Below, one piece after another: positions 1-32,000 of a stretch of 32,000 nucleotides of DNA. Position 1 is the stretch's first letter; every line of letters starts with the position of its first letter. The DNA comes from Candidatus Nanogingivalaceae bacterium (GTDB lineage: Bacteria; Patescibacteriota; Saccharimonadia; Saccharimonadales; Saccharimonadaceae), in the NCBI GenBank assembly GCA_015257795.3, contig CP072208.2:630001-662000 (forward strand), read 5' to 3'. Under the pieces are notes generated by a model. The model saw only the letters and a list, made by a program, of their open reading frames with translations, searched no databases and was not told where the DNA came from. Both the position numbers and the translations under genes were made by a program.

Positions 1-1239
1 AACTTCCTTCAAAAGCCCCGCGTCGGCAGGTTTATAACCTTTAGAAATTAGTTTACTTAGATTTTCAGTAACTTTATCCCAATAAAATAGTCTTCTAACT
101 TTTGAAAGATTTGTTGAAACTTGTTTGAGAGTTTCTTTATCTTTCGAAATTTTAATAATCTCTTTTTCGATAGTTTTTGCATCAAGATCTGGCAAAATAT
201 AAACCGCTTTATTTGCTTCCAAAATATCACTCATTGGGTCACCGCCGTTCGTAACAATTGGTAGGTCGGCCCAAACATAATCAACCAACCGCGTTCTCCA
301 AGCGAGCGTATTCTCCATTCCAATATTGTTAATCAGCACTACAGCATCACTTCCAAGATACCATTCAGCCCTATCTTCAAATTTAACCCAATCAGTAATA
401 TGAACGATTTCATCCATATTATTATTTTTAATATAGTCCATGACCTCTTCGTATCTTTTTATGAAATCTGGGTGTTGATTGAATGGATTTTTAACTCCAA
501 CCATGATTAATTCAATTGGTGTTGTTTTATTGGCATTTTTAACAGCCTCGAGTAGATTAGTGAGATCAAACCAAGGGTAAATTCCACCAAACCACAACAG
601 TTTGAAAGCCTTTTTATTCTTAACAAGTTTCGATACTGGATCATTCTTAGCTACCGCTTTTTCTCGATAAATACCATAAGGAACAATCTGAATTAGATCT
701 TCATCACCATAAGTTATTGGATTTATTCGGCCAACTTGCGCCATCACGCCTGTGTAAAATTTCTTTTGAGCTTCGTTTGCACATAGCAAAATATCACCTC
801 TTCTCAAGGCTTTTGTCCATATCTTATTTTCGAAATTAAACGCATCATATTCACGATCAAGGTTATCTGAATTTCGTGCAGACATCTCAATGTGAATAGG
901 AACATACCCATCCAATATTAACTGCTGATCTTGACGTATATTATCAACAACTGTTTGCGTTATATCTCCAGCATTATAACTAACAAGAACTGAATCAAAT
1001 TCTTGAATTTTCTCTGCCAATGTCGATATTTCCCAAGTAGAAATTTTAATACCATTTAATTCATCCGTAAAATTATCTTGTTTAAAAACTTGGTTATATG
1101 AAACTTCAACTTCATACTTATCTTTTGAATTATTTTGAAGTCCATTCGCTAGCCCCCAAGCTCTCAATCCACCACCTTCAACATTTTTAATTTCTGGTGC
1201 TGGAACTGGACCATTCGAAATGATTAAAATTTTTTTCAT
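1..1239 (-). CDS. Glycosyltransferase, GT-B fold (GT4-like); 3' end runs off the window
   Basis: Missing from the supplied track because it is truncated by the window edge. My reverse-strand translation from the ATG (1239-1237) stays open for all 413 codons: MKKILIISNGPVPAPEIKNVEGGGLRAWGLANGL...GMENTLAWRTRLVDYVWADLPIVTNGGDPMSDILEANKAVYIL... This shows a Gly-rich N-terminal loop and a C-terminal sugar-nucleotide region typical of GT-B enzymes. AAGGAG lies 5 nt upstream, and the start overlaps the upstream stop as TAATG. Confidence 0.6.
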   Translation of the reverse strand, partial: MKKILIISNGPVPAPEIKNVEGGGLRAWGLANGLQNNSKDKYEVEVSYNQVFKQDNFTDELNGIKISTWEISTLAEKIQEFDSVLVSYNAGDITQTVVDNIRQDQQLILDGYVPIHIEMSARNSDNLDREYDAFNFENKIWTKALRRGDILLCANEAQKKFYTGVMAQVGRINPITYGDEDLIQIVPYGIYREKAVAKNDPVSKLVKNKKAFKLLWFGGIYPWFDLTNLLEAVKNANKTTPIELIMVGVKNPFNQHPDFIKRYEEVMDYIKNNNMDEIVHITDWVKFEDRAEWYLGSDAVVLINNIGMENTLAWRTRLVDYVWADLPIVTNGGDPMSDILEANKAVYILPDLDAKTIEKEIIKISKDKETLKQVSTNLSKVRRLFYWDKVTENLSKLISKGYKPADAGLLKEV

Positions 1240-2243
1240 TATTTCTCCTTACTACTATCTTTATGAATAATCTTATGTAGACCAAACCACTTTCGGTTTT
1301 CTAGTTCTTCAATATTATTCTCTAAATTTTTTACATTATTTTCATGATGCTTAATGATTAGCCCTTGCTCATCTATAAACTTCTGTCTATCACTTAATAG
1401 CTTGTTCCGCTCTAAAATTGAAATCTCTTTTTCCGCAAGATAGTTTTCAAGTGTGGTTTGTTTTTCTAAGAGCTCCTTAATCGCCTGTAAAAAATTAACT
1501 TTTTCTTGATATTTTTGTAAAAATTTTATCTGCGTTTGAAGTAGTCGCTGGTTTCTTTCTTGAATTCTCGAAAGATCTTCTGGATGGGAGTCTGATCCTG
1601 TAGTAAACCTATATGCAACCATTGGCTCTTCTATTGTTGAAAGTTTGGTCTTAACAAATAATTCCAGTTGGATATCAAATGTATCATCAGGAGTTTTAGT
1701 ATCAAGTGTATTGTTTATTTCCTTCATTAGTTCAGTATTAACTAACCATGTTGAAGCATTTGTAAAACCTTTAGAAATTAACATCTCAGTAAAATCTTCG
1801 GGCATTTTTACAAATTTTTCAGCGAAAGACTTTTTAAAAAGAATTTCCCCTTCCTCATTCTCAGTTTGAAATTCAGTATTACACCATTTCGAATCTTTAT
1901 TACTCTCGAGAAGATCGACTTGTTTTTGTAGCTTATCTTTTTTAATCCAATAATCATCACCGTCGCACCGAGCTATATATTTGCCTCGAGCCTTATTACA
2001 TATTTTCTTCCAAGTTTTCGCAATCCCTAGATTTTTTTCATTTTCGAAGAAACGAATCTTCTTAGGATTTTCATTTGCAAATTTTCGAATAATTTTAGAC
2101 GATGCATCGGTGGAAGCGTCGTCAATAATTAAAATCTCAAACTCAAAACTAGTTTCCTGCATTAAAAAGCTCTCAATTGCTTGCGCAATCCACTTTTCTT
2201 TATTGAAACTCGTACAAACTACAGAAACTAACGGATTTTTCAT
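1239..2243 (-). CDS. Family-2 (GT-A) glycosyltransferase with a C-terminal coiled-coil extension
   Basis: GT2 hallmarks are present: VSVVCTSFNKEKWIAQAIESFLMQ, IIDDASTD, CDGDDYW. The last ~110 aa are heptad-like (KNLENNIEELENRK). GAGGAG lies upstream of the ATG. Confidence 0.85.
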   Translation of the reverse strand: MKNPLVSVVCTSFNKEKWIAQAIESFLMQETSFEFEILIIDDASTDASSKIIRKFANENPKKIRFFENEKNLGIAKTWKKICNKARGKYIARCDGDDYWIKKDKLQKQVDLLESNKDSKWCNTEFQTENEEGEILFKKSFAEKFVKMPEDFTEMLISKGFTNASTWLVNTELMKEINNTLDTKTPDDTFDIQLELFVKTKLSTIEEPMVAYRFTTGSDSHPEDLSRIQERNQRLLQTQIKFLQKYQEKVNFLQAIKELLEKQTTLENYLAEKEISILERNKLLSDRQKFIDEQGLIIKHHENNVKNLENNIEELENRKWFGLHKIIHKDSSKEK

Positions 2244-2323
2244 TTACTACTTTTCTCCTCAATAGATGTTTCAATTGTTTAAACTAATATCCTAAAAGAT
2301 AACTCCCGTTCTCAAGATTGATC

Positions 2324-3523
2324 TTATTTGATCCTTTCAACCTTAAAAACTTCACTATTGAGCAATGCATAATCTGAAATTTCTTTTTTGTTTGAAAGCT
2401 TAAAAATTAAGGAATTTTCATCATTCGTAAAGCCAATTAAGTTTTCATTACCACTCAACTTTTTATTGGCATCTCGAATTGAAGCAGTAAGCTTAAACTC
2501 ACTACTGTTAAATAATTCCATCGGAATTGAAAACCTTACCTTTTGGTCACCACGATCAACATAAACTTGGCTCGAATCGTAGACAATTCCACCACGAGTT
2601 TGATCGAACATAGCCACTGCAAGGAAGATTTTTTTCTTACCTATATAATTATACTCTACCTCAAATTCAAAATTCTCTTTATTTGATACAACTTTTTTAC
2701 TGATTGCATTAATCTTTAATTTAGTCAGTTCATCATTCAAACCAAGAACTTCTTGAGTTTCAGGCTCTTTCTTTCCAAGTTTTTCAAGATTTAATTGGGT
2801 GTAAGCTTCAACAACTTCATCGATACTTCCAAGAGAAGCAACTTCACCTTGGTTAATCATAATAGCCTTATTACAATATCTACGCACAGAAGACATAGAG
2901 TGCGTCACAAGGATGACAGTTTTAGTCTTATCTTTTTTAATTTTCGAGAAGAAATCATCACATTTTCGCTGGAAAGCTTCATCACCAACCGCCAAAACTT
3001 CATCCAAAACCAGGATATCACCCTGAGCTTTAATCGCAATCGAAAAAGCCAAACGAACTTGCATTCCGCTAGAGTAATTCTTTAGTTTTTGGTCCATAAA
3101 TTCTTCAAGTTCCGCAAACTCAACAATTTCGTCATACATTGCCGAAACTTCATCTTTCGAAAAACCTAAAAGCGCACCGTTAAGATAAATATTTTCACGA
3201 CCAGTTAGCTCTGGGTTGAATCCAACGCCAAGCTCAATAAATGGAATTAATGTCCCGTTAACTTTTACAGTTCCTTTTTCAGGAGTATAAATTTGTGAAA
3301 TAATTTTTAAAAGAGTCGATTTTCCTGAGCCGTTTCTTCCAACTATGCCAAAAAAATCACCTTTTTCAACTTTAAATGAAATATCTTTTAAAACATGTTG
3401 TTCTTTGTAACCTTTAATTCCTTTTGTCCAGTTTACGAAAGCCTGTTTAATACCGTTAGCCTGTTCAGTTGGCAAACGAAAACTTTTCGAAACATGTTTC
3501 ACTTCTAAAGCGTATTTTCCCAT
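2324..3523 (-). CDS. Glycan/teichoic-acid exporter ATP-binding protein (Wzt/TagH type) with an extra C-terminal beta-rich domain
   Basis: Walker A GRNGSGKST, signature YSSGMQVRLAF, Walker B ILVLDEVLAVGD, H-loop LVTHS. The additional ~150-aa C-terminal domain resembles that of Wzt-type exporters. Confidence 0.85.
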   Translation of the reverse strand: MGKYALEVKHVSKSFRLPTEQANGIKQAFVNWTKGIKGYKEQHVLKDISFKVEKGDFFGIVGRNGSGKSTLLKIISQIYTPEKGTVKVNGTLIPFIELGVGFNPELTGRENIYLNGALLGFSKDEVSAMYDEIVEFAELEEFMDQKLKNYSSGMQVRLAFSIAIKAQGDILVLDEVLAVGDEAFQRKCDDFFSKIKKDKTKTVILVTHSMSSVRRYCNKAIMINQGEVASLGSIDEVVEAYTQLNLEKLGKKEPETQEVLGLNDELTKLKINAISKKVVSNKENFEFEVEYNYIGKKKIFLAVAMFDQTRGGIVYDSSQVYVDRGDQKVRFSIPMELFNSSEFKLTASIRDANKKLSGNENLIGFTNDENSLIFKLSNKKEISDYALLNSEVFKVERIK

Positions 3524-4347
3524 TACATAATCTCCGCAAATTTCTTTGAATTTTTATTAAAATACCAAAGTCCGAAAACAACCAAAAATATTGCTAGCGA
3601 AATTGGAATTATTGCTATCCAATAATTTTGGAATAGTGTCCAAAAAGTTGGCGTTTCTAGTGCAATTAAATTATGGCGAATATCCTGGATTGCTAGCGCT
3701 ATTGGATTAAGCATCATTAATTTCGCAACTGATACGCCAAAAATTGAGACTTTTGATACCATTGAAATTGGGTACATAATCGGCATTGAATATACCAGAA
3801 TCTGCATAAAAACTTCCCAGATATGCGAAACATCGCGGAATTTAACATATAGAGTCGACAAGATCAACGCAAGACCAAAAGCAACTGCAAATAACAGAAT
3901 GATGTTAAAAGGTAGCCATAAAACTGTTAGGTGATACTTCACCCCTGCAAATATTGCAAACGCTAGCACTACTAGAAGATTTATCGAAAGCGAGATTAAA
4001 GCACTCACCATCGAAGAAAGAATCACGATGTATTTTGGAAAATTAATTTTCCGCATCAAATCACCGCGAGAAACAATAGACGTCATTCCTAATGTTACAG
4101 CTTCAGTAAAGAACGCCCAAAGCGAAAGACCCAAAAGTAATGTAATTGCATAGTTAGGAATTGAAGGGTCAGTAATTCGCAAAAATTTAACAAAAACAAA
4201 GTACATCACCACAAAAATCATAAGCGGTTTTAATACCGACCATAGAATCCCTAAAACCGACCCTTGGTACCTTAATTTAAAATCTGTTTTAACGAGCTCC
4301 GCAAGTAAGACTCGGTTTCTCTTATCAAAAAATCCCATTTTAGTCAT
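3523..4347 (-). CDS. ABC-2 type glycan exporter permease (Wzm/TagG-like)
   Basis: 274 aa, multi-pass hydrophobic protein with ABC-2 architecture. Its stop overlaps the start of the ATPase gene (TAATG). Confidence 0.8.
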   Translation of the reverse strand: MTKMGFFDKRNRVLLAELVKTDFKLRYQGSVLGILWSVLKPLMIFVVMYFVFVKFLRITDPSIPNYAITLLLGLSLWAFFTEAVTLGMTSIVSRGDLMRKINFPKYIVILSSMVSALISLSINLLVVLAFAIFAGVKYHLTVLWLPFNIILLFAVAFGLALILSTLYVKFRDVSHIWEVFMQILVYSMPIMYPISMVSKVSIFGVSVAKLMMLNPIALAIQDIRHNLIALETPTFWTLFQNYWIAIIPISLAIFLVVFGLWYFNKNSKKFAEIM

Positions 4348-4357
4348 TATGCTTACA

Positions 4358-4366
4358 ATTATACCA
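4358..4366 (-). promoter_or_regulatory. Extended -10 box TGgTATAAT, 10 nt upstream of the permease ATG
   Basis: The reverse complement of 4348-4370 reads aaTATGGTATAATtgtaagcata followed by ATG. There is no Shine-Dalgarno (SD) sequence in the gap. Confidence 0.45.
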
Positions 4367-4378
4367 TATTAATCTATT

Positions 4379-4410
4379 AAAAAAAAGATCACTCTCGAGA
4401 GAGAATGACC
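4379..4410 (-). terminator. Rho-independent terminator after the lectin-repeat gene
   Basis: Imperfect 10-bp hairpin (4387-4396 / 4401-4410, 8 of 10 positions paired, centred on CTCTCGAGAG), followed on the minus strand by a run of 8 T. Confidence 0.5.
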
Positions 4411-4420
4411 TTTTTAAAAA

Positions 4421-6697
4421 CTATTGTTTTAATTTCCACTGTTGAGAAAGAGTCTGGTTTCTTGAATACAATTGTAACTTAGTACCGGACACGCCTATCA
4501 TCCCCCCAGACACATCTATAGTCTTGTTGGAATCACAGGCGGATAAAATTTCATACAACCCGTTATCGCTCTTTAAGATTTTCCATTTTTGAGCACAAGT
4601 TCCGTTATAATCATAGAGTTGAAGTTTAGTACCGTTTGATATTCTACCACCAGACACATCAATTACTTTACCGTTATCACTACGGATGACATAAAGATTG
4701 TCTGAAGTTTTTTCGATAGTAAAATTCTGAGCAAGTGTTTTATTTTGGTTGTATATTTGTAAATTCGCACCATTAGTCATTCTACCACTAGCTACATCCA
4801 TCGCTAATGTAGTCATGGTTGAAACTACATGCTTACCTTCTACCTCATCGCTATTAGATATTTGTTCATCTAAAGCCTTAATAGTGTTAACATCCTCAAT
4901 CTTCCATCTTTGTGCATCGGTGTTATTAGAGCTATAACCTTGAAGATATGAGCCGCTAGTATTAATAGCGCCATTAACAACATCTATAACAAAACCTCCA
5001 GAACAAGCATTTTGAACCTTATAAGCGCCTCTTTCATCGGCATGAATTGACCAAAGTTGCTCGCAAGAATTTTGTCTATCATGATTGAAGCGTAGTTGCT
5101 TAGCATTTACATTCTCAGTTATTTCCAAAAAACTTCCACTAGATATACTTTTAATTTTATAGAACACTCCGTCATACTTTTTTATCTCAAATTGTTGAAT
5201 TGGGCTATTTGAGACAAAATCTACGATATGAGCGGAAGCTTCTTCATTCTTAATACCTATAACCTTGTTAGATACAAAATTCGAAATCTTAAACGTTCCA
5301 TTTAGGCCTTGAGATAAAGATTTAATATTGAACTCTTGAGATGGCGTATCATTCCTGCTATAAAGTTGAAGTTTAGTACCAGAAGAATTTACATTTCCAC
5401 CGACTATATCCAACGCTTTATTTCCATTACACTTAGAAAGAATTTCAATCTTTCCGTTAGGTTTTCTACTTAAAGCCCATTTTTGTGCACAAGTTCCATT
5501 ATAATCATAAAGTTGAACCGAAGCTCCATTAATAGTTCTTCCTCCAGCCACATCAAGAACTTTTCCTGATCCTAAGTTCCTAATAACGTAGTATCCGTCG
5601 TCAGTCTGTTCGAATGAAAATTGTTGCGCTTTAGAACTATTTGCAGCATAGATTTGAATACGAGCACCATTTGAGTTGATTGCGCCATTTTCAATATCTA
5701 AATTTAATGAAGAGTTAGCCGAAACTGCATAAGAATCTTTAGGCAAAGCCACATTAGATTTAACAATTTCAACCTTGTCATCAGTAGTTGAACCAAATAA
5801 CTGATTGTAGAACATGAAGAAATTACGATTTCCGTAAGCGCCACAATTTGCAGTTCCTGGGAAGTTTGCAAGTGCTGCATCATTTGGAACATATGGAGTG
5901 TAGATATACAAGCTTAGTGTTGCAACATTTTCAATATTAACTCGTTTTGTTCCACATGCTGGATTTGGCGAATATTGTATATTATTCCAACCAATTCTCA
6001 AAGAGTATCCGCCATCTTTATAGTGATCTTTATAATATTTTAATTGCCAAGCAGCAAGAGTCATCTGTTTATAAAAACCAGCTTTCGAATTTACACAAGC
6101 AGCAGTATAGTTTGGCCCAGAATCAGGACAACCATAACCCATTGCATATTTATATTGACCCTTTACCGGCCAATTATCATTTAAGACATTCTGTGATTCC
6201 TTTTTTAATAGGACTAAAAGAACCTTCGGGCTAATTCCATATTCTTGAGCAGCATTATAAATAATTTGCGCAGCTGATATCCCGCCACTAAACGCTCCAC
6301 CACCTTTTTCGAAAGAAGTTTCACCTGTATTTGGATTTTCGTGATAGTTGTTTATACAAACATACGGCGGTTGATGCCAATAACTCGAACGTTGAGCCGC
6401 CGCAAATTGCGCCGCGGTTCGTCCATCACCCCTACCAGACGGCCCACTACCCCAAGTATCACATTGTCCAACTTGACTATTTAAAAATGCCTGAATTTGT
6501 TGAACATTCATAGAGTCTTTATCATAAAAAACACTATCATCAATAATTCTTCCTGGATTAAAATCAGTTGCGCGTACTGCGCTTGAGATATTTCGAATTA
6601 TAGCTAAAGCACTAAAAACAATTAGTGCCACAACTGGAACCCCAATAAAAACTGCTTTTCTAAATTCTCTATTTCTCGATCGTAAAACTTTGAGCAT
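4421..6697 (-). CDS. Secreted or membrane-anchored protein: N-terminal signal anchor, ~300-aa Cys-containing domain (tentatively lysozyme/lytic-transglycosylase-like), three ricin-type beta-trefoil lectin modules
   Basis: N-terminal hydrophobic segment AVFIGVPVVALIVFSALAII. Repeated (QxW)-type subrepeats: AQQFSFE, AQKWALS, SQEFNIK, EQLWSIH, AQRWKIE, AQNFTIE, AQKWKIL, SQQWKLK. The N-domain motif ISPKVLLVLLKKESQ...AMGYGCPD recalls Glu-Ser catalytic motifs of muramidase-like folds; that assignment is uncertain. Confidence 0.8.
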   Translation of the reverse strand: MLKVLRSRNREFRKAVFIGVPVVALIVFSALAIIRNISSAVRATDFNPGRIIDDSVFYDKDSMNVQQIQAFLNSQVGQCDTWGSGPSGRGDGRTAAQFAAAQRSSYWHQPPYVCINNYHENPNTGETSFEKGGGAFSGGISAAQIIYNAAQEYGISPKVLLVLLKKESQNVLNDNWPVKGQYKYAMGYGCPDSGPNYTAACVNSKAGFYKQMTLAAWQLKYYKDHYKDGGYSLRIGWNNIQYSPNPACGTKRVNIENVATLSLYIYTPYVPNDAALANFPGTANCGAYGNRNFFMFYNQLFGSTTDDKVEIVKSNVALPKDSYAVSANSSLNLDIENGAINSNGARIQIYAANSSKAQQFSFEQTDDGYYVIRNLGSGKVLDVAGGRTINGASVQLYDYNGTCAQKWALSRKPNGKIEILSKCNGNKALDIVGGNVNSSGTKLQLYSRNDTPSQEFNIKSLSQGLNGTFKISNFVSNKVIGIKNEEASAHIVDFVSNSPIQQFEIKKYDGVFYKIKSISSGSFLEITENVNAKQLRFNHDRQNSCEQLWSIHADERGAYKVQNACSGGFVIDVVNGAINTSGSYLQGYSSNNTDAQRWKIEDVNTIKALDEQISNSDEVEGKHVVSTMTTLAMDVASGRMTNGANLQIYNQNKTLAQNFTIEKTSDNLYVIRSDNGKVIDVSGGRISNGTKLQLYDYNGTCAQKWKILKSDNGLYEILSACDSNKTIDVSGGMIGVSGTKLQLYSRNQTLSQQWKLKQ

Positions 6698-7280
6698 CAG
6701 ATTTTCCTTCTTGTTTTTGTTTTATATTTTTATATGTTGTTACCGCAGTCCACTTACCAGATTTAAGATCATTATCACTGATTTTTTTCGAAACAGCCTT
6801 ACAATACTTATTGTTTGGACTTTCTAAAATTTCAGTTGAAAGTTCAATAGTAGTTCCGTCTGTATGGGTTAGAGTATACGAACATTTCCCGTTTCCGTCA
6901 TCATAAAGCAATCCTGAAATTTGTCCAGCAACACGAACTGCACCATCTTCAACTTGAACTGTTGTATAAGTCGGGAAACTGGTATATCCTGATGTATCAG
7001 TAGTTCCTTCTGCACGATCTGTTGTCGTATTCTTGGTTTTTGAATCAATAATCTTTTTTTCAGATTCGTCTTGTTTTTTATTTTCATTTTCAGATTTTTT
7101 TGAATCTGTTTTTTTATCTTCAACCTTCGAAGTTTTTTCTTCTTTTTTATTTTCACTTTTATCGCTCTTTCGTGAATTCATCCACCAAAAAGCTCCGCCA
7201 GCTCCAAGCAGCAAAATAATCGCAACAATTACGAAAGCAATAATTTTAGTTTTTTTAGTATTTTGTCTATTTATTTTCAT
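6669..7280 (-). CDS. Membrane-anchored surface protein with a Lys/Glu/Asp-rich linker and a small C-terminal 2-Cys beta-rich domain
   Basis: N-terminal TM segment IIAFVIVAIILLLGAGGAFWW, then a low-complexity KSDKSENKKEEKTSKVEDKK linker, then a C-terminal globular part. AGGAG SD. The gene overlaps the next gene by 29 nt. Confidence 0.6.
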   Translation of the reverse strand: MKINRQNTKKTKIIAFVIVAIILLLGAGGAFWWMNSRKSDKSENKKEEKTSKVEDKKTDSKKSENENKKQDESEKKIIDSKTKNTTTDRAEGTTDTSGYTSFPTYTTVQVEDGAVRVAGQISGLLYDDGNGKCSYTLTHTDGTTIELSTEILESPNNKYCKAVSKKISDNDLKSGKWTAVTTYKNIKQKQEGKSDAQSFTIEK

Positions 7281-7362: not shown

Positions 7363-7371
7363 ATAACTACT

Positions 7372-24506: not shown

Positions 24507-25246
24507 AATTCATCTTTAGAAAGTGCCCTCTTAATTTCGTCATACGAAAACCCTTGTCGTGCTAAATATGCGACAAGTTTTTTTTCGTCAGCGTATTTTT
24601 TGGCTTTTTTTGCAATTATTTTTTGAATTTCTTCCGAATCATTACGCTTTGAACTTGCTAAAATTTGTTCGATAATTTCGTCTGAAACACCTTTCGAAAA
24701 TAATTCAGATTTTAATTTTTTAATTGAACTTCCTTTTCTTTGATTTCGATTTTCAATCCAAAATTTTGCAAATTTAAAATCATCAACATAGCCTTTCTCA
24801 ATCAATCTTTGCAAAGCTTGTTCTGCTGAAACTTTTGAAACTCCTTTTTTCTCATAAAATTCACCCGTTTTTTTATTTCGAAGCTTTCGATTTAGCGTTT
24901 TTTTCCACAGATAATCACTAATTTCCTTTTCAGAATGTGGCCGCATCAAACAATAATTAAGCCCAAGAGCATATAATTTTCCAAATTCACTCTGTTGTTC
25001 GAGATTTAAAATTTCATCTTCTGAAAATTTTGCACCAATTTTAACATTTAGTTGAGTTAATTGAAAAATATCCAAAGAAAAACGATATTTTCCATTTACA
25101 AAAATATTAGCACGATTTGGATTTTTAACTGCTTGTTTTATATCTGTAATCGTGAAATGGCCATCTTTAAAAATATCTTCTTTTCGAAAACTTTTTTTTG
25201 CAACTTTTTCTTTAAAATCATTTTGATCGAAAATATCTAAAGCCAT
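24503..25246 (-). CDS. recX: RecA regulator RecX (long, Firmicute-like form)
   Basis: Immediately downstream of recA, with repeated three-helix motifs: ALNYCLMRPHSEKEISDYLWKK, RLIEKGYVDDFKFAKFWIENR, YLARQGFSYDEIKRAL. Confidence 0.8.
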   Translation of the reverse strand: MALDIFDQNDFKEKVAKKSFRKEDIFKDGHFTITDIKQAVKNPNRANIFVNGKYRFSLDIFQLTQLNVKIGAKFSEDEILNLEQQSEFGKLYALGLNYCLMRPHSEKEISDYLWKKTLNRKLRNKKTGEFYEKKGVSKVSAEQALQRLIEKGYVDDFKFAKFWIENRNQRKGSSIKKLKSELFSKGVSDEIIEQILASSKRNDSEEIQKIIAKKAKKYADEKKLVAYLARQGFSYDEIKRALSKDEF

Positions 25247-25258
25247 AATTAAAAGTAT

Positions 25259-25284
25259 AATTAGCCCGAATTTTCAGGCTAATT
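25259..25284 (-). terminator. Hairpin between recA and recX (possible attenuator)
   Basis: 8-bp stem AATTAGCC/GGCTAATT with a 10-nt loop, in the 41-bp recA-recX spacer. The trailing T-run is weak. Confidence 0.45.
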
Positions 25285-25287
25285 ATA

Positions 25288-26352
25288 TTATTTTTCTTCT
25301 TTTTCCTCATTATCAGAAGATTCTTCAGCAATTTCCTCTCCACGAATTTTTGCACGAACTTTTTTCTCAATTTCAGCCATAACTTCTGGATTTTCAAGCA
25401 AGTATCGTTTAGCGTTTTCACGACCTTGACCAATATTTTGGTCGTTATATTTGTAAAACGCACCTGATTTTCCAAGAATTTCATGTTCAACTGCTAGATC
25501 TAGAATATCACCCGTTTTCGAAATACCTTCATTATACATAATGTCAAATTCAGCAATTCTAAACGGCGCTGCAATCTTATTTTTAACGATTTTAACCTTT
25601 GTACGGTTACCAATTACATCGTCGCCACTTTTAATTTGTGCAGTTCGACGGATATCGGCACGCACTGACGCATAAAATTTAAGCGCATTACCACCAGTTG
25701 TAGTTTCAGGATTGCCAAACATCACACCAATTTTCATTCGAATTTGGTTAATGAAAATCACAGTCGCTTTTGATTTATTAATAATTCCGGTAAGTTTTCG
25801 AAGCGCTTGCGACATTAATCGAGCCTGAAGACCCATATGCGCATCACCCATGTCGCCATCGATTTCAGCTTGTGGAACTAACGCTGCAACAGAGTCAACA
25901 ACAATCAAATCAACAGCATTTGAACGCACTAGAGTTTCAGTAATTTCAAGAGCCTGCTCGCCATTGTCGGGCTGCGCAACAAGCAAATTCTCAGTATCAA
26001 CGCCGAGTTTCTTTGCGTAAGCTGGGTCAAGTGCATGTTCCGCGTCAATGAAAGCTGCAGTTCCACCTTGCTTTTGAATTTCAGCAATCGCATGAAGTGT
26101 TAGAGTAGTTTTTCCTGAACTTTCTGGTCCATAAATTTCAATGATTCGTCCTTTTGGATAACCACCACCAAGCGCAATATCTAAACTTAAGCATCCCGAA
26201 GGAAGAAGCTCAACATCAACCTTATGATTTTCACCAAGTTTCATAATTGAACCGTCACCAAATTGTTTCGAAATTTGAGCAATTGCTAAATCTAATGCTT
26301 GTTTTTTGCCGCTTTCGGCCATTCCCATATCTGTTTTCTTCGCCTTAGCCAT
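25288..26352 (-). CDS. recA: Recombinase RecA
   Basis: Walker [27 protein letters not shown], and L2-loop region [32 protein letters not shown]. Confidence 0.97.
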
Positions 26353-26380
26353 AAATAATTCTCCTTAAAATAATATCTTT

Positions 26381-26409
26381 ATTTTAACACTTTTCAATAA
26401 AACGTTCAA
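26381..26409 (-). promoter_or_regulatory. recA promoter TTGAAC-17-(TGt)TAAAAT, with a ~28-nt SD-containing leader
   Basis: Reverse strand reads TTGAACgttttattgaaaagTGtTAAAATaaagatattattttAAGGAGaattatttATG. Confidence 0.5.
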
Positions 26410-26435
26410 GGTTATTTTTATATTTATCTTTAATA

Positions 26436-26444
26436 TGCTATAAT
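26436..26444 (+). promoter_or_regulatory. Extended -10 box TGcTATAAT, 6 nt upstream of the pilin ATG
   Basis: TATGCTATAATaaaagcATG. Confidence 0.5.
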
Positions 26445-26450
26445 AAAAGC

Positions 26451-26840
26451 ATGAAGAGAAAATCTGGTTTTACACTTATCGAGATTTGTGTTGTAATTAT
26501 TTTTTTAATTGCGGCGGGTATAATTCTTACTATCCAGCGTTTCGAACTTTTATCAGTTCAACGCGATCAAACTCGTAAGCTAGCAATTAATGAAATTTAT
26601 TATAATCTCGAGGAAGTCTATTACAAGAAAAACGGTTTCTATCCTGAAAAACTTGATGAAAATGCCGTCAAAGGAATTGACCCAAACCTATTAACAGACC
26701 CCTTCGGAATCCTAATTAACGAAGAAAAGAGTGACTACCGTTATGAGCCAACAAGTTGCGAAAACGGAAAATGCAAAAAATTCTCTCTTCGTACAAAATT
26801 AGAAAAAGAAAGCGATTTCGTAAGGCGTTCGAAAAACTAA
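26451..26840 (+). CDS. Type IV prepilin / competence-type pseudopilin
   Basis: Class III signal MKRKSG|FTLIEICVVIIFLIAAGIIL (Gly-1, Phe+1, Glu+5). C-terminal Cys pair CENGKC. 129 aa. Confidence 0.8.
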   Translation: MKRKSGFTLIEICVVIIFLIAAGIILTIQRFELLSVQRDQTRKLAINEIYYNLEEVYYKKNGFYPEKLDENAVKGIDPNLLTDPFGILINEEKSDYRYEPTSCENGKCKKFSLRTKLEKESDFVRRSKN

Positions 26841-26844
26841 TTAT

Positions 26845-26876
26845 AAAATAGCCCTGTTAAATTCTAGGGCTATTTT
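26845..26876. terminator. Bidirectional rho-independent terminator
   Basis: AAAATAGCCCT gttaaattct AGGGCTATTTT: an 11-bp stem flanked by A and T runs, between convergent genes. Confidence 0.7.
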
Positions 26877-26879
26877 ATA

Positions 26880-27632
26880 TTATTTTACCGATATTTTTGC
26901 ACCTTCTTCAAAAAGTTTATCTGAAAGCATTTGATTTTCGCGTGCTGTCTCCACGATATCGCTCAAAAATTCAGCTTTCTTGTCCGGGTTTGGTGCAAAC
27001 GGAAAAGTATAGGTTGACTCATCACCAATAGTGCTTAATCGCACTGTTCCATAATCAAACAAATGCTGTAAAATCCCTTCACGAGAATACGAGATATCTT
27101 CAATCGCTTCCAGGTTAATAACCTGCTTTCTCTGATTCATAATTGTATTCGAAATCCACTGAATTGCACGTTCATTTGTTATGATTAATCTGTTCGCTCG
27201 ATAAACAACATAATTTATATAAGTTATTAAAATTAAAAGCACCGTTATTGAACCGAAGATTAATGAAAGTTGCGGCTTAAAGTTGGCTGGAATTGGAAAC
27301 GGATTTGGTAAAAAGCAAATAATAATCCAGGCGCTAATCAAGAAAACAGCAATAATTGAGCTAAAAATAATGTTAAGCAAATAGCCTAGTGCATGCCGAC
27401 GCATCGAAAGCACAACATATTCATCTTCATCAACTGTAATATCGGGATACATTCTTACCGATTGATCATGACGTGCTTTAATTACGCGTGGATCGCCAGC
27501 AGGAACTTCAACCTGCATAACTGGCTGAACTCGAATTGGCGCGCCCAGACTATTTTCGAAACTTAAATTTTCATTCTGATTCTGGGCAATTTTTTCCTCA
27601 AATTTCTGGGCTAGGCTTTGCTTATCGTTCAT
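26880..27632 (-). CDS. Membrane protein with a bacterial PH (bPH_2/YdbT-like) domain
   Basis: Two adjacent TM helices, followed by NERAIQW...[31 protein letters not shown]. Overlaps the end of ruvB by 11 nt. Confidence 0.6.
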
Positions 27633-28638
27633 CTTTGAATTCCTTTCCTAAATGCTCAAACGCTTTTTTCGTAATTATTCTTCCTCGTGGTGTTCTTTGC
27701 AAAAAACCAATCTGCATTAAATATGGTTCATAAAAATCTTCAATTGTCGCAGCTTCATCACCCGTCAATGCAGCCATTGTATTTAAGCCAACTGGCCGAG
27801 TGCCATAATTTTCAATAACCGATTTTAATAGATTTCTATCTGCTGCATCCAACCCTAATTCGTCAATTTCAAGCATTTCTAAGGCCTCTTTAACCGTTTT
27901 CGAGTCAATAATTCCATCACCTTTTACATCTGCATAGTCTCGAACGCGCTTCAAGATGCGGTTCGCAATTCGTGGTGTTAATCTTGCTCGAGTTGAGAGA
28001 ATATCTGAAGCTTCTTTTTCAATATCACTACCTAATAAATTACTTGAGCGTAAGATAATTTTTGAAATTTCCTTAGGTTTATAAAATTCTAACCTATAGA
28101 TATGTCCGAACCGGTCTCGGAGTGGAGCCGCCAGACTTCCAGTTCGAGTTGTGGCGCCAATAACTGTAAAATGCGGCAAATCCAGCCGAACCGAGCGTGC
28201 GGCCGGCCCTTTACCAATCACAATATCAAGTTTAAAATCTTCCATTGCAGAATAGAGAATCTCTTCAACAGCACGCGGCATGCGATGAATTTCATCAATA
28301 AAAAGAATATCGCCATCTTGTAAATTCGTCACAATCGAAGCTAAATCTCCCGCTTTTTCGATTGCCGGACCAGATGTAATTCGAATATTCGCGCCCATTT
28401 CACGCGCAATAACATTTGCCATTGTAGTTTTTCCTAGTCCTGGCGGACCATAAAGTAAGACGTGATCAATACTTTCACCACGTTTTTTTGCCGCGTCAAT
28501 CGCAAGCTTTAAATTCTTTTTCAATCGCTCCTGACCGATATATTCATCAAAATTCGTTGGACGCAAAGAAATCTCCACCTGCTGCTCTTGCGGTTCGTCA
28601 TCGTGTAAGTTTGCATCAATAATTCTTTCAATAGCCAT
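27622..28638 (-). CDS. ruvB: Holliday junction branch-migration ATPase RuvB
   Basis: [12 protein letters not shown], Walker [10 protein letters not shown], Walker B LFIDEIHR, sensor GATTR. Confidence 0.95.
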
Positions 28639-28645
28639 TGCTTAT

Positions 28646-28654
28646 ATTATACCA
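28646..28654 (-). promoter_or_regulatory. Extended -10 box TGgTATAAT, 7 nt upstream of the ruvB ATG
   Basis: Reverse strand reads cgTGGTATAATataagcaATG. Confidence 0.5.
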
Positions 28655-28658
28655 CGAC

Positions 28659-28687
28659 TTGACAAAAATAGAAAAATTTGTTATAAT
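28659..28687 (+). promoter_or_regulatory. Perfect consensus sigma70 promoter TTGACA-17-TATAAT for the orphan gene
   Basis: TTGACA at 28659-28664, an exact 17-nt spacer, TATAAT at 28682-28687. It lies back-to-back with the ruvB -10 box. Confidence 0.65.
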
Positions 28688-28719
28688 TCTATTCAGTATT
28701 CCTTTTTGGAATAAGAATT
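28685..28719 (+). promoter_or_regulatory. Imperfect palindrome around the predicted transcription start site (operator or 5' UTR hairpin)
   Basis: AATTCT attcag TATTCC ttttt GGAATA AGAATT. Inner arms are at 28697-28702 / 28708-28713, outer arms at 28685-28690 / 28714-28719. Confidence 0.4.
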
Positions 28720-28741
28720 TTATACTTAGGAGGCTCTTAAT

Positions 28742-29161
28742 ATGGGCAACTTACATTTAATCAAAGGTGACGTTGACATTTTCAAGAATGCTGTAAAAGC
28801 AGCACGTGGTGATGAAGAAATGGCAAAAGAAAACTTAACTAAAGATATTTTCAAATATGCCAGGGCTATCTCTAGACACGTGTTTAATAAAAAAACACAT
28901 AGAAGCTACCTCTATCACATAGATAATCTGGATGTCACTAACGGTTTTGGGGATGAGCCTGTTGCGGTTCTTGTAGAAACCAAAGACTGTTTTGCTATAA
29001 ATAAAAATGGTGACATTTATAGCAAAACTAGCAGTAATAAATACGGTTTCAAGAAGGTAAATGAAGCAGATCTTCTCAGCTTAGCTGGAGAACAAATCGG
29101 ATTCTTATATAAAGCGCTTCATAATCTCCTACGAGAAGTTGTAACCTTCCGTAAAAATTAA
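28742..29161 (+). CDS. Hypothetical cytoplasmic protein (139 aa); no family recognised
   Basis: Strong SD AGGAGG 8 nt upstream, a consensus promoter, and its own terminator. No TM segment or signal peptide. I recognise no motif. Confidence 0.65.
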   Translation: MGNLHLIKGDVDIFKNAVKAARGDEEMAKENLTKDIFKYARAISRHVFNKKTHRSYLYHIDNLDVTNGFGDEPVAVLVETKDCFAINKNGDIYSKTSSNKYGFKKVNEADLLSLAGEQIGFLYKALHNLLREVVTFRKN

Positions 29162-29164
29162 AAT

Positions 29165-29190
29165 AGTCGCACGAAATGTGCGGCTTTTTT
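29165..29190 (+). terminator. Rho-independent terminator after the orphan gene (also faces ruvA)
   Basis: 8-bp stem 29165-29172 / 29178-29185 (AGTCGCAC ... GTGCGGCT, including one G-U pair), loop GAAAT, then a T-run. Confidence 0.75.
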
Positions 29191-29199
29191 CTTTTTAAA

Positions 29200-29775
29200 T
29201 TAAATTCCAGCTTTCAATGCCAAAGTAATGCGTTCTTCTGTTGGTAAATCACGCGGGATTTGCTCTAATGCTTTTGTTGCATCGTTCAAGTTAAATCCAA
29301 GCGCAATAAGCGCCTCTAAAGCCTCATCTGAAGCCAAGCTAATATTATCGCCAACTCCATCGGGTTTCGAAATCGCCATTCCAACTTTATCTTTTAAATC
29401 TAAAATTACGCGCTCGGCCGATTTTTTACCAACGCCAGCAGCTTTTTGAATAAATTTCGCATCTTCACAGGCAATTGCGTTTCGAACTTCTTCGGTTTCA
29501 CCCAAGCTCATAATGGCAATTCCAGCTCTTGGCCCAACACCTTGAACAGTAATCAACAATTCAAAAAGTTTTTTAGCCGCCAAACTTGAAAAGCCAAATA
29601 ATTCCTGGCTTCTATCAGTAATATTATGATAAGTATAAAATTTAATCTGCTCGTTTAAAACCGCCCGTTCGAATTCTCCTACGGGAACAATAACTTCATA
29701 GCCAACACCAGAAACATCAACAATCACGCTCCCTGCAAATTTTTCAGCAATTTTTCCAGAAATATGTGCAATCAT
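29200..29775 (-). CDS. ruvA: Holliday junction DNA helicase subunit RuvA
   Basis: MIAHISGKI...GVGYEV, HhH motifs LITVQGVGPRAGIAIMS and KAAGVGKKSAERVILDLK, plus C-terminal domain III. Confidence 0.9.
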   Translation of the reverse strand: MIAHISGKIAEKFAGSVIVDVSGVGYEVIVPVGEFERAVLNEQIKFYTYHNITDRSQELFGFSSLAAKKLFELLITVQGVGPRAGIAIMSLGETEEVRNAIACEDAKFIQKAAGVGKKSAERVILDLKDKVGMAISKPDGVGDNISLASDEALEALIALGFNLNDATKALEQIPRDLPTEERITLALKAGI

Positions 29776-29781
29776 TGTTTA

Positions 29782-29790
29782 ATTTTACCA
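29782..29790 (-). promoter_or_regulatory. Extended -10 box TGgTAAAAT, 6 nt upstream of the ruvA ATG, in the 30-bp ruvC-ruvA spacer
   Basis: Reverse strand reads ttATGGTAAAATtaaacaATG. Confidence 0.4.
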
Positions 29791-29805
29791 TAATTATTTT
29801 AGTTT

Positions 29806-30291
29806 TTAAATACGCGTCATATAAAAATGCGTAATTGCGGCAGCAAGCGCATCGGCTGCGTCATCCGGCTTTGGCACTTCTACTAGATTCAAAGTTGAAC
29901 GCACCATTTCTTGCATTTGTTTTTTGTTTGCACCGCCATACCCAGTTAAAGTTTGCTTAATTTGATTTGGCGTATATTCAGCGATTGGAATTTTCGATTG
30001 TTGAGCTACTAAAATCGCCACACCTCGAGCCTGTGCGACCGAAATTGCCGTCGTTACGTTTTTCGAAAAGAATAGTTTCTCAATTGAAACCTCATCTGGC
30101 TTAGTTTCTTCAATAATCTCTTTTAAGCCGTTATAGATCTCCTCTAGTCGAATTTCAATTGGCGTGTGTGCAGGAGTTGAAATAACCCCTCCTGTAATCA
30201 TTTTTAACGGTTTTCCAATCTGGCAATCTACAACGCCAAACCCTAAAATTCCTGTTCCTGGGTCGATACCTAAAATTCGCCGTTTTTTCAT
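29806..30291 (-). CDS. ruvC: Holliday junction resolvase RuvC
   Basis: ILGIDPGTGILGFGV (catalytic Asp), EVSIEKLFF (Glu), DAADALAAAITH (Asp/His). Confidence 0.9.
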   Translation of the reverse strand: MKKRRILGIDPGTGILGFGVVDCQIGKPLKMITGGVISTPAHTPIEIRLEEIYNGLKEIIEETKPDEVSIEKLFFSKNVTTAISVAQARGVAILVAQQSKIPIAEYTPNQIKQTLTGYGGANKKQMQEMVRSTLNLVEVPKPDDAADALAAAITHFYMTRI

Positions 30292-31799
30292 TTTTTACCT
30301 TTCATTAATTTTGCAAAAATATCTCTTCTAAACTCGAAAAATAAAATTGCTAAAAATATCAAAATAATTACAGCAATAGCCCACCAACCCGTAAATTCAG
30401 CCTGTTTCGATTCTTTTTCATCTTTTTCGACTTCATTATTTGCGCCGTTGTTTTTAACTATTTTTCTACAACGATTTGTTTCAGTGTTGCGCTCGTAGCC
30501 ATCTTTGCACGGCGTTATTTCTTTTTTCGCATCTGAACTATTTTTTCGACATCGATTTGTGATAGGATTACGCGTATAGCCCGGCGCACAAACCGCCAGC
30601 TCTTTCGAAGAACTTGCCAGTGTTGCAATTTTGCGGCAACGATTTGTTTCTGGACTTCGAACATAACCATCGCGACACTCTGTTGTCGCTACTTTTTCGA
30701 CTGGCATTTTATTACAACGATTCGTTTGCGGATTCAAAAAATACCCATCACTGCACTTTTTCTCAGTTTTTTCATCATTTTCAATCTTTTCGGTTTTTTC
30801 TTTTTCGAGTTTTTCTTCTTTTATTTTATTACATCTTCCAGTTTCTTCATTTAAAAAATATCCGTCTTCGCAAACTTTTATTTTTTCGCACTGCCCTTGC
30901 GAATTTAAATTGAATCCATTTTCGCAAGGCTGAAAAATATTTTCACTTTTTTTTGTAATTTTAAAACTTTGACTCCATTCTTTTCCATCAAAGATCCAGC
31001 TCAAATCCTTTTTCGAATTTTTTAAATCAACAGTTTGAATTTCTTGATTGTTCGAATCTAATAACGAAATTTTATTTAAGCCCATCTTTAAAAGCTTGAA
31101 ATTTAGATCCGTATTTAAATCAAGCGAGAAAAAACTATTTGGTAAAATTTCTTCATCCGTAAAAACTTTTTTATACGGCTTTTTTAAACTTCCAAGATGA
31201 ATTTCAACTGCGCAATTTTTAAGATTTATTTTTTTATTTGTATTATTTTTAAATTCAATAAATTGCTCGCTTGAATTTGCTAAAACCTCGTTTAATTGTA
31301 TATTTTCGCAAAAATCAGGCTCTTTTTCCGCCAGGCCGCCAGTTTTAAAAACTACACCCTCTTTCGAAATCTCAAAATCACCGCCCAAGTTCAAATCTCG
31401 AACTAAAACATCTTCTTCTGTAAATTCTGGCGCATTTTTATTTTTGCAAGTCATTTTTAGACCACATAAAAAGTCTACATCCTGCCCGTCAATCCTTAAT
31501 TTTATTTGGCTTTTCAACAATTCCGGATTTAAAATAAGTTCCCCATCACCATTTTCGCCAAATGAAATTTGTGATTTTTTAAGAAAAACTCCGTTTGAAA
31601 TTTCGCCAATTATTTTATTTTTCTGAATTATCTCAATTTTCGAAAAACTCAAATTATCACCCAAATTTGTGATCTCAATCATTGTATTTGAAACTTTCGA
31701 AATTAAAATTTTCTGATCAGAAATAGCCGAAGCTTGATTAAAATTTCCCAAAAAGAATAAAGCTAAAATTAAAAATAAAAAATATCTAAAAAACCTCAT
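30288..31799 (-). CDS. Secreted, C-terminally membrane-anchored protein: lamin-tail-domain (LTD)-like region(s) plus six Cys-pair repeats
   Basis: Signal peptide MRFFRYFLFLILALFFLGNFNQASA. LTD-like IQLNEVLANSSEQFIEFKNNTNKKINLKNC. Six copies of C-x-[DPN]-G-[YF]-x-[LR]-[NS]-x-x-[TQ]-[NG]-[RQ]-C-x-K. C-terminal TM segment WWAIAVIILIFLAILFF plus a basic tail. ATGA overlap with ruvC. Confidence 0.75.
   Translation of the reverse strand: MRFFRYFLFLILALFFLGNFNQASAISDQKILISKVSNTMIEITNLGDNLSFSKIEIIQKNKIIGEISNGVFLKKSQISFGENGDGELILNPELLKSQIKLRIDGQDVDFLCGLKMTCKNKNAPEFTEEDVLVRDLNLGGDFEISKEGVVFKTGGLAEKEPDFCENIQLNEVLANSSEQFIEFKNNTNKKINLKNCAVEIHLGSLKKPYKKVFTDEEILPNSFFSLDLNTDLNFKLLKMGLNKISLLDSNNQEIQTVDLKNSKKDLSWIFDGKEWSQSFKITKKSENIFQPCENGFNLNSQGQCEKIKVCEDGYFLNEETGRCNKIKEEKLEKEKTEKIENDEKTEKKCSDGYFLNPQTNRCNKMPVEKVATTECRDGYVRSPETNRCRKIATLASSSKELAVCAPGYTRNPITNRCRKNSSDAKKEITPCKDGYERNTETNRCRKIVKNNGANNEVEKDEKESKQAEFTGWWAIAVIILIFLAILFFEFRRDIFAKLMKGKK
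30468..30926 (-). repeat. Six in-frame Cys-pair repeats (aa 292-444 of the LTD protein)
   Basis: CENGFNLNSQGQC, CEDGYFLNEETGRC, CSDGYFLNPQTNRC, CRDGYVRSPETNRC, CAPGYTRNPITNRC, CKDGYERNTETNRC. A recurring nucleotide core CAACGATTTGT is visible on the plus strand. Confidence 0.8.
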
Positions 31800-32000
31800 T
31801 CAAAACCCCTCTCTTAAATACAATTAACATTTCAAACGCGGATAAAAGTAAAATCTGTAAAGTGAAATTAGCATTTTTTTGATTAAATCCAGTATTCGGA
31901 GCTAAAATTTTAGTCTTATTCTTAGATTGAGTTATTGTTTTATTATTTTTTTCTTCAAAATTAATCTTTGGCTTAAAAAAATCATCTTTTACAGAAGGTT
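31786..32000 (-). CDS. 3' end of a surface-protein gene with a sortase-type sorting signal (5' end outside the window)
   Basis: Missing from the track because it is edge-truncated. My translation: ...KTKILAPNTGFNQKNANFTLQILLLSAFEMLIVFKRGVLNEVF-stop. This gives an LPxTG-like APNTG, a hydrophobic stretch, then KRG. The stop at 31786-31788 overlaps the next gene's start by 14 nt. Confidence 0.45.
   Translation of the reverse strand, partial: PSVKDDFFKPKINFEEKNNKTITQSKNKTKILAPNTGFNQKNANFTLQILLLSAFEMLIVFKRGVLNEVF

Follow-up and report, generated by a model that had tools for sequence, protein, structure and literature searches.

The window analysed in the current study is a stretch of 32,000 nucleotides (positions 630,001 to 662,000 of contig CP072208.2) from the genome of an uncultivated oral Saccharibacterium of the family Nanogingivalaceae. 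It is crowded with the palindromic hexamer TTCGAA, of which a large share is extended to the octamer TTTCGAAA. We have high confidence that TTCGAA is, in this organism, a genuine and clade-specific palindrome that is actively maintained at the level of DNA. Its closest known counterpart is HIP1, the highly iterated palindrome (HIP) of cyanobacteria, and not the classical uptake sequences. A mechanism linked to a DNA methyltransferase is put forward tentatively; the maintained palindrome and such a mechanism, taken as one reading, are assigned a probability of roughly 0.55. No report of an enrichment of TTTCGAAA or TTCGAA in Saccharibacteria was found in the literature searched, and the enrichment in this group appears to be new, while the kind of phenomenon that it resembles is already known.

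An exact count gives 87 copies of TTCGAA and 37 copies of TTTCGAAA in the window. A sequence-only reading of the same DNA had estimated about 85 and about 37, and its independent-base expectation of about 10 and about 1 is likewise close to the recomputed 10.9 and 1.1. Shuffles that preserve dinucleotides contain 25.5 +/- 5.1 copies of the hexamer (maximum 39) and 4.2 +/- 2.2 copies of the octamer (maximum 10), the observed number being reached in 0 of 100 shuffles in both cases, and the enrichment of TTCGAA in the window is 3.4-fold. Shuffling of synonymous codons within the native genes yields 31.2 +/- 4.7 hexamers against 84 observed (z about 11) and 7.7 +/- 2.5 octamers against 35 observed, with an enrichment of 2- to 3.3-fold in each of the three frames considered separately. 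Measured as an observed to expected ratio (O/E), the excess of TTTCGAAA is 33 with zero-order expectations, about 8 with dinucleotide shuffles and 4.5 with codon shuffles, and the octamer is the most frequent 8-mer of the window, the next non-overlapping word having 15 copies. Neither the dinucleotide nor the codon-shuffled null, both of which the sequence-only reading had named as checks, reproduces the counts, and the excess of TTCGAA is confirmed as real and robust.

A maximal-order Markov model, also named there as a check, was run and returns an O/E of only 1.1-1.2 for the motif. As 70% of the copies of TTCGA sit inside TTCGAA, the motif supplies most copies of its own sub-words, and the test is for this reason circular and uninformative; the model was rejected as a null and its low ratio is no refutation. 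This ratio, together with the commonness of TTCG, CGAA, TTTC and GAAA, is what speaks for the view that there is no specific feature at all and that the motif is a by-product of base composition, of CpG or codon usage, or of amino-acid content. The observed counts lie about 11-12 standard deviations above the dinucleotide and synonymous-codon nulls, and the by-product view is refuted by this together with the comparisons given below of intergenic DNA, of half-site coupling, of the sister lineage and of unrelated AT-rich genomes; we regard it as extremely improbable.

The copies are spread over two native segments of the window as follows.

Positions 1 to 12842, no strand assigned: native segment A, with 35 copies of TTCGAA, 15 of them within TTTCGAAA, all coding.
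Starts of TTTCGAAA in segment A: 142, 828, 3155, 3485, 6307, 6786, 7434, 8617, 9706, 10021, 10475, 10601, 11049, 12094, 12693.
Positions 12767-12772, inside rnpA: last TTCGAA before the motif-free gap.
Positions 16322 to 32000, no strand assigned: native segment B, with 52 copies of TTCGAA, 22 of them within TTTCGAAA.
Starts of TTTCGAAA in segment B: 16835, 17276, 17674, 18790, 19743, 20425, 20737, 20879, 21455, 21904, 22149, 23258, 24692, 25182, 25516, 26266, 27554, 29365, 30061, 31362, 31638, 31695.

All 87 copies lie in coding sequence, bases 1-1238 being a partial open reading frame (ORF) on the minus strand. Those in native genes are found 16 times in frame 0, 27 times in frame 1 and 41 times in frame 2. 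The gene of a T2SSE/PilB-like ATPase (22647-23921) has all three frames, and the examples drawn from it in the sequence-only reading are all correct.

Positions 22667 to 22672, plus strand: frame 2 copy (xxT TCG AAx).
Positions 22689 to 22694, plus strand: frame 0 copy (TTC GAA, Phe-Glu).
Positions 23020 to 23025, plus strand: frame 1 copy (xTT CGA Axx).

The hexamer occupies 16/39 (41%), 27/62 (44%) and 41/96 (43%) of the positions at which it is synonymously possible in frames 0, 1 and 2 respectively. Where the motif is possible, TCG makes up 60% of the serine codons and CGA 66% of the arginine codons, against 12-21% and 22-43% respectively in other contexts, and the Phe-Glu pairs are written as TTCGAA 16 times, TTTGAA 10 times, TTTGAG 12 times and TTCGAG once. 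These shifts show that synonymous choice is bent toward the motif, as had been suspected earlier from a few serine codons; the Lys-Ser-Lys with TCA cited at that time is present (AAA TCA AAA at 20393-20401), in a context where the motif cannot be encoded.

Comparisons beyond the window are based on sampled pieces of 20-32 kb, which amount to about 120 kb of the motif-rich clade in all. Intergenic DNA pooled from this clade (6.2 kb) contains 9 copies of TTCGAA against 2.8 expected from dinucleotides, a 3.2-fold enrichment at 1.45 per kb. Because this fold-enrichment equals that of coding DNA, the force is one on the DNA that takes no account of translation; the motif is driven at the DNA level and not by codons or by the peptide. 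Effects on the proteins are only suggestive: the residues encoded by the motif are less conserved with respect to other Saccharibacteria than the remainder (0.46 vs 0.54), and 11-12 Phe-Glu pairs are found against 7 in the orthologous RpoB, RpoC and ClpP.

Among words of the form NNCGNN, a left TT and a right AA occur together with an odds ratio of 3.5 (p = 1.5e-13), and around central dinucleotides other than CG there is no such coupling of half-sites (odds ratios 0.6-1.14). The earlier claim that the palindrome itself is enriched, and not a CpG or single-codon effect, is thereby upheld. A follows TTCGAA in 62% and TTTCGAA in 69% of the copies against a background of 42%; the base after TTTCGAAA is at background and nothing is conserved beyond one base on either side of the hexamer. 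It follows that the unit is TTCGAA, framed by an outer T...A pair that is less strict, and no longer element or flanking consensus was found past 8 bp around the window copies. Of the words one base away from TTTCGAAA, 34 differ at positions 1/8, while the inner positions account for 14, 12 and 21.

The motif-free gap of the window covers an insertion, the genes of which were assigned through Pfam matches.

Positions 12843 to 16321, minus strand: strain-variable insertion with Pfam matches and no TTCGAA.
Positions 12921-13535, minus strand, in the insertion: DUF4352 gene.
Positions 13673-15895, minus strand, in the insertion: copper P-type ATPase with cupredoxin domain.
Positions 15906-16277, minus strand, in the insertion: cupredoxin protein.

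The gap without TTCGAA extends from 12773 to 16835 and spans the insertion of 3.5 kb, which has a G+C content of 0.43 with peaks at 0.45-0.48. The sequence-only reading had described a foreign copper island at 13600-16320 that lacks the motif; the absence is seen here over a wider gap and the insertion proves to vary between strains. For the insertion, the native density would predict 10.6 copies where 0 are seen (P = 2.5e-5). The dinucleotide content of the island itself predicts only 1.3 copies, and zero is thus what unadapted foreign DNA would show; the island is recent foreign DNA, not yet affected by the force that builds the motif. In strains L085, L089 and L092 lepA leads directly to rnpA and the insertion is absent, L086 has an additional CopY-like (Penicillinase_R) gene at the same junction, and L093 has an unrelated gene of 292 residues there. 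The best plasmid match to the copper module is the copper ATPase with cupredoxin of Lactococcus piscium (67% identity). The lepA-rnpA junction is in this set an insertion hot spot, empty in three strains and with varied cargo in others.

The RecA of the window is 84-85% identical to RecA of metagenome-assembled genomes of Saccharibacteria, and a protein identical to it is listed at NCBI under 'Candidatus Nanogingivalaceae bacterium' and is present in hundreds of assemblies from human samples, being indexed in 852 blocks of the assembly collection. When RecA homologues were searched for intermediate relatives, the list was filled by variants of the same species with 98-100% identity. Ten more strains with a DNA identity of 94-99% have 58-67 copies of TTCGAA per 21 kb, and the DNA flanking the window is equally dense in the motif. 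The strain genomes are mosaic, with identities of 92-98% that change by block. The recA neighbourhoods of 20 other Saccharibacteria show no enrichment (70 copies pooled against about 150 expected, O/E 0.47) and unrelated AT-rich genomes show none either. Among about 65 recA neighbourhoods the window is an outlier, its best palindromic 8-mer having a z of 12.3 against at most 8.6 in the others, at 3-4 times the density.

A scan of metagenomes for three closely spaced octamers returned mostly tandem repeats, together with two contigs in which the motif is dispersed (L221 and L328). Graded relatives were found through the ClpP of L221 and were then examined locus by locus.

L336, L339 and L340, motif-rich species A: G+C 0.37-0.38, 55-57 TTCGAA per 20.6 kb, 22-26 TTTCGAAA.
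L338, motif-rich second species: G+C 0.38, 50 TTCGAA per 20.6 kb, 25 TTTCGAAA.
L341, motif-rich third species: G+C 0.38, 65 TTCGAA per 20.6 kb, 32 TTTCGAAA.
L335, L337 and L342, sister lineage, Ca. Nanogingivalis gingivitcus and close kin: G+C 0.35, 2 TTCGAA per 20.6 kb (5 expected), 0 TTTCGAAA.

The lineage of the window is likeliest species A. TTTCGAAA is the top 8-mer also in L336, L338 and L341 (22, 25 and 32 copies). TTCGAA reaches 2.4-3.2 per kb in three or more species-level lineages, against about 0.1 per kb in the sister, and the octamer has a density of 1160-1550 per Mb in the motif-rich clade. The DNA identity of rpoB is about 87% among the three motif-rich lineages and 78% to the sister. 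As a sister of equal G+C is without the enrichment, the latter is clade-specific and not a consequence of base composition. The genome specificity asserted by the sequence-only reading accordingly holds with respect to unrelated AT-rich genomes, other Saccharibacteria and the sister lineage.

The sister lineage is CpG-poor (O/E 0.77 vs 1.24 in the motif-rich clade), and the O/E of TCGA is 0.26 in the sister, 2.05 in the motif-rich clade and 1.13 in other Saccharibacteria. GATC is also avoided in the sister (0.40), and the motif-rich clade avoids other short palindromes (GTAC 0.20, ACGT and CATG 0.36, TATA 0.37, CTAG 0.44). The two sister clades hence bear different restriction-avoidance signatures. 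They differ as well in synteny upstream of clpP, with ftsA-ftsZ-nrdR in one and nusA-ogt-clpC in the other.

The fate of individual sites was followed within and between species. In an alignment of 11 strains there are 68 motif sites, 34 of them fixed, and half are polymorphic within the species; for segment B, 34 of the 52 TTCGAA sites are invariant across the 11 strains. Of 208 non-synonymous positions that fall within the motif, 1 is polymorphic, compared with 4% elsewhere, and pi at four-fold sites is 0.057 inside the motif, 0.123 overall and 0.082 in TCG/CGA codons outside the motif. Retention was measured on whole hexamers against frame-matched controls, namely other NNCGNN words and the stricter set of other WWCGWW words.

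Invariant in 11 strains: TTCGAA 65%; NNCGNN 37% (p = 9e-5); WWCGWW 53% (not significant).
Conserved between L336 and L338 (80% DNA identity): TTCGAA 42%; NNCGNN 22% (p = 2e-4); WWCGWW 28% (p = 0.035).
Common to at least two of the three species: TTCGAA 51%; NNCGNN 21% (p = 7e-8); WWCGWW 35% (p = 0.07).

Sorted by the number of species that hold them, 31 sites are found in one, 24 in two and 8 in three. With L338 as outgroup, species A has about 10 apparent gains and 7 apparent losses, and singletons in the 11 strains comprise 11 losses and 5 gains, a difference that is not significant. Apparent T-to-C gains are as frequent as C-to-T losses despite the AT-rich genome. In rpoB, rpoC and clpP, 24 sites are present in two motif-rich species and 0 in the sister, 6 of them being common to both species. 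Many of these sites differ from the sister at two or more positions, with transversions in the flanks, and among the changes are a serine codon switched from AGT to TCG and replacements of Tyr by Phe, Ala by Ser and Leu by Phe. What emerges is a weak directional force on the complete site that is continuous in several species, with a steady turnover of sites; the motif is not a frozen relic.

A further explanation would be very-short-patch repair as the sole cause, in which an m5C methyltransferase and a T:G mismatch endonuclease would convert TTTGAA/TTCAAA to TTCGAA. Dcm and Vsr are thought to act in this manner on CCWGG in E. coli. The preponderance of CpG/TpG exchanges among single-step alternative alleles (22 of 31) agrees with this explanation, as do the T-to-C gains noted above. 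The same exchanges are, however, simply the synonymous transitions that are open at those motif positions, the CpG of the motif is no more variable than TCG/CGA codons elsewhere, and TTTGAA/TTCAAA are barely depleted. Moreover the whole TTYRAA pool is expanded, and the origin of many sites lies in changed flanks, transversions and replaced amino acids, which a correction limited to the C/T position cannot produce. The word bias due to Dcm/Vsr remains a useful parallel, being a methylation-linked repair that raises the frequency of the methylated site, and CpG/TpG exchanges dominate the polymorphism of TTCGAA also; it differs in that the deamination product is here hardly depleted and that flank positions and transversions contribute. 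The effect on TTCGAA is far larger than the CCWGG bias in E. coli. We consider very-short-patch repair alone to be quite improbable.

The retention of sites above matched controls within and between species, the very low non-synonymous polymorphism inside the motif and the persistence of the trait across at least three species would equally be expected under direct selection for a chromosomal function, such as the binding of a nucleoid-associated or segregation protein, or the organisation of domains as has been proposed for HIP1. Xu et al. have argued for selection and a chromosome-scale periodicity in the case of HIP1 (PMC5861425). The local spacing of TTCGAA is, on the other hand, indistinguishable from random within the 20-32 kb pieces: the coefficient of variation is 0.85 in the window (Kolmogorov-Smirnov p = 0.10) and 0.95 when pooled (P = 0.39), and a locally regular spacing was rejected. 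About half of the sites are species-specific, and the sister lineage lives in the same way without the motif. A chromosomal function is thus judged improbable as the explanation.

The sequence-only reading did not name HIP1, which is the phenomenon judged closest. As with HIP1 (GCGATCGC) and the alternate HIPs (PMC4390886; PMC5861425), a perfect palindromic octamer is the most abundant 8-mer. The density of TTTCGAAA, about 1.2-1.5 per kb, lies within the 0.3-2.7 per kb of HIP1 (300-2700 per Mb; PMC4390886). Both occur in all frames and in non-coding DNA with codon choice bent accordingly, both have an inner hexamer of the form recognised by Type II modification, and in both the one-base deviants gather mostly at the two outer positions, as described for HIP1 (PMC4390886). 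Retention is clearly above the NNCGNN controls and only weakly above the WWCGWW ones, individual sites turn over, and related lineages are without the motif.

There are also differences, and the palindrome seems to work like a HIP but is not HIP1. TTTCGAAA is AT-rich and unlike GCGATCGC, and its host belongs to the phylum Saccharibacteria/Patescibacteria with reduced epibiont genomes. Its O/E (33 zero-order, 8 over dinucleotides) is at the low end of the 15- to 300-fold over-representation of HIP1 (PMC5861425). The inner TTCGAA is itself strongly enriched, whereas CGATCG outside HIP1 mostly is not, and no cognate methyltransferase for TTCGAA was identified in the roughly 120 kb of the clade that were looked at. 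TTCGAA is shared throughout a clade of three or more species, whereas Elhai calls the alternate HIPs sporadic.

Two of the unrelated recA neighbourhoods, from Thiomicrorhabdus sp. (L054) and Pseudorhodobacter sp. (L053), have other prominent palindromic octamers. CAGGCCTG, found 7 times in 21 kb of an unrelated recA neighbourhood (z = 8.6), has been reported as HIP-like in Synechococcus PCC 6312 (PMC5861425), and TTGGCCAA is found 9 times in 21 kb of an unrelated recA neighbourhood. The literature may underrate how widespread milder HIP-like palindromes are.

The analogy preferred by the sequence-only reading was that of the DNA uptake sequences of naturally competent bacteria, which include the DUS of Neisseria and the uptake signal sequences (USS) of Pasteurellaceae. 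The likenesses are considerable. The octamer occurs about once per kb, mostly in genes and in both orientations, it is common to related species and missing from recently acquired DNA, and it is strong enough to affect codon choices and some choices of amino acid. The uptake sequences of Haemophilus are said to affect the proteome as well, and the change of flanks and amino acids seen here resembles that. To our knowledge, uptake sequences are 9-12 nt long, non-palindromic and embedded in a longer consensus. TTCGAA is in contrast a short perfect palindrome of 6-8 bp with neither an asymmetric core of 9-12 nt nor an extended consensus, unlike the DUS of Neisseria it does not cluster in inverted pairs between genes or in terminators, and it coincides with a restriction/modification site. 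On these points of anatomy the analogy is not supported in the form in which it was put.

An explanation by uptake or self-recognition would be a molecular drive in which the competence machinery prefers DNA with TTCGAA and motif-bearing alleles spread as a result. Natural competence dependent on ComEC has been shown for other Saccharibacteria, which also carry type IV pili (PMC10633639). The density of about 1-3 per kb, the occurrence in related species and absence from foreign DNA, a force on the whole site that also alters flanks and amino acids, and the mosaic strains with block-wise identities of 92-98% all fit with such a drive. HIP1 itself has been reported to raise transformation in a way that depends on methylation (bioRxiv 10.1101/2024.09.10.611283), and a role as uptake sequence has been put forward for it (bioRxiv 10.1101/2024.09.10.611283; 10.64898/2026.06.24.733823). 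Transformation competitions between DNA with and without the motif, methylated or unmethylated, have served to examine HIP1 in Synechococcus PCC 7002. Set against this are the absence of anything conserved past 8 bp and of any intergenic or terminator preference, the presence of the motif-free island in most strains nonetheless, and a sister lineage that is presumably equally competent and yet avoids the site. A classical uptake sequence is disfavoured on anatomy; a transformation-linked role is possible in terms of function. We hold the uptake drive to be possible and, as the cause of the enrichment, rather unlikely.

TTCGAA is the Type II site of enzymes of the BstBI/AsuII type. The identity with an enzyme site and its avoidance by relatives (TTCGAA 0.47 in other Saccharibacteria, TCGA 0.26 in the sister) are features of a Type II restriction/modification target, and the 3- to 8-fold enrichment is the opposite of the effect of exposure to a cognate endonuclease. 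Since the relatives avoid this canonical Type II site, enzymes that cut TTCGAA or TCGA are probably common around these organisms, and a resident methyltransferase is on that account the most economical candidate for the protein that would recognise TTCGAA and be the source of the force.

The mechanism proposed here is therefore centred on a resident, possibly orphan, TTCGAA-specific DNA methyltransferase as the likeliest recogniser. Mutations that create a methylatable TTCGAA site would be fixed preferentially, and two routes may lead to this. The first would be a methylation-coupled, strand-biased mismatch correction, the ratchet suggested for HIPs by Elhai in 2015 (PMC4390886), and the second a methylation-dependent advantage of site-bearing DNA in natural transformation or recombination. 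The force as such is shown by the data: it is blind to frame and to coding, has lifted the site to about 43% of the synonymously available positions, and has also driven multi-step and some amino-acid-changing substitutions in conserved genes. It holds the density steady in three or more species even as single sites come and go, and recently acquired DNA is not yet affected. A bolder variant, in which TTCGAA would serve as a methylation-marked 'self' tag that enhances the uptake or recombination of conspecific DNA in natural transformation, is considered unlikely at present.

Several observations weigh against the maintained, methylation-linked palindrome. The excess retention is weak with respect to the strictest WWCGWW control (not significant, p = 0.035 and p = 0.07 in the three comparisons), and the 11-strain data are unpolarised, so that they do not tell selection and biased fixation apart. 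The Poisson-like spacing is at odds with a model that lets sites build up until each kilobase has been covered. TTTGAA/TTCAAA, the deamination product, shows only a mild depletion (O/E 0.68-0.73, with 0.73-0.82 for relatives), and compared with the sister lineage it is no rarer. A search for catalytic motifs in the ORFs of the motif-rich loci and through the Pfam tables of the sampled loci revealed no DNA methyltransferase, Vsr or MutH-like gene in about 120 kb of the clade, a sample of perhaps a fifth of a genome, and this negative is not a test.

The window and the sampled loci have further features of their own. The lepA gene is present as two ORFs, one for the GTPase domain (183 residues, 17548-18099) and one for the remainder (408 residues, 16322-17548), and in the junction AAGGAGATTTAATGAAA a Shine-Dalgarno-like sequence precedes the stop and start codons, which overlap as TAATG. 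All ten other strains have an identical split, and this is thus a real split gene and not a sequencing error. The end of the window is about 1 kb from rpmH, dnaA, dnaN and recF, that is, beside the presumed replication origin, and the GC skew is negative along the entire window. The rnpA-yidC-jag genes (11043-12842) are about 19 kb from rpmH-dnaA and not adjacent to them as in many bacteria. A protein of 758 residues with six ricin-type beta-trefoil lectin repeats is encoded at 4421-6697, within a cluster of glycosyltransferase, ABC-2 exporter and GtrA genes that runs 9 kb to the left of the window; this cluster is a candidate surface or host-attachment locus of the epibiont.

A scan of viral contigs for paired octamers returned mostly chance matches or tandem repeats. 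An IMG/VR contig of 8.9 kb (L212) has the tetranucleotide signature of the motif-rich clade (r = 0.98). Its genes are topA and one for a sigma-70 region 4/HARE-HTH protein, after which come RecT and a protein that joins a PD-(D/E)XK nuclease to an FtsK-like ATPase. The motif reaches 2.6 per kb in the half with topA and 1.3 per kb in that with RecT, a difference that may mark a partly adapted mobile element. L212 was rejected as a clean phage, having the composition of the clade itself and carrying a RecT/FtsK-like element. A metagenome contig of 11.2 kb (L309, G+C 0.46) with CGAAAGTA/TACTTTCG 34 times in 11 kb represents an unrelated high-copy repeat.

For about 30 years the cause and function of HIPs have been under debate, nearly always with cyanobacteria as the subject; HIP1 is present there in almost all lineages, and clean contrasts are few. 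The present case is an independent occurrence of this kind of phenomenon in a distant phylum, with a different, AT-rich sequence and in an abundant human-associated host whose genome is probably under 1 Mb. Its sister lineage, identical in G+C, niche and lifestyle, avoids the site and provides a natural comparison for the question of why some bacteria accumulate palindromes of this kind. With so few genes and hundreds of metagenomic strains, a comparison of the presence and absence of methyltransferase, repair and competence genes and a polarised test of selection versus biased fixation are feasible. TTCGAA is in addition a sharp compositional marker for binning the clade and for spotting foreign DNA, and if methylation is involved it matters for attempts to transform these organisms. 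Should the 'self' tag prove true, it would be a palindromic uptake or recombination signal in Patescibacteria akin to what is currently proposed for HIP1, and hyper-abundant palindromes would count as a general means, evolved independently, of biasing the exchange of genes.

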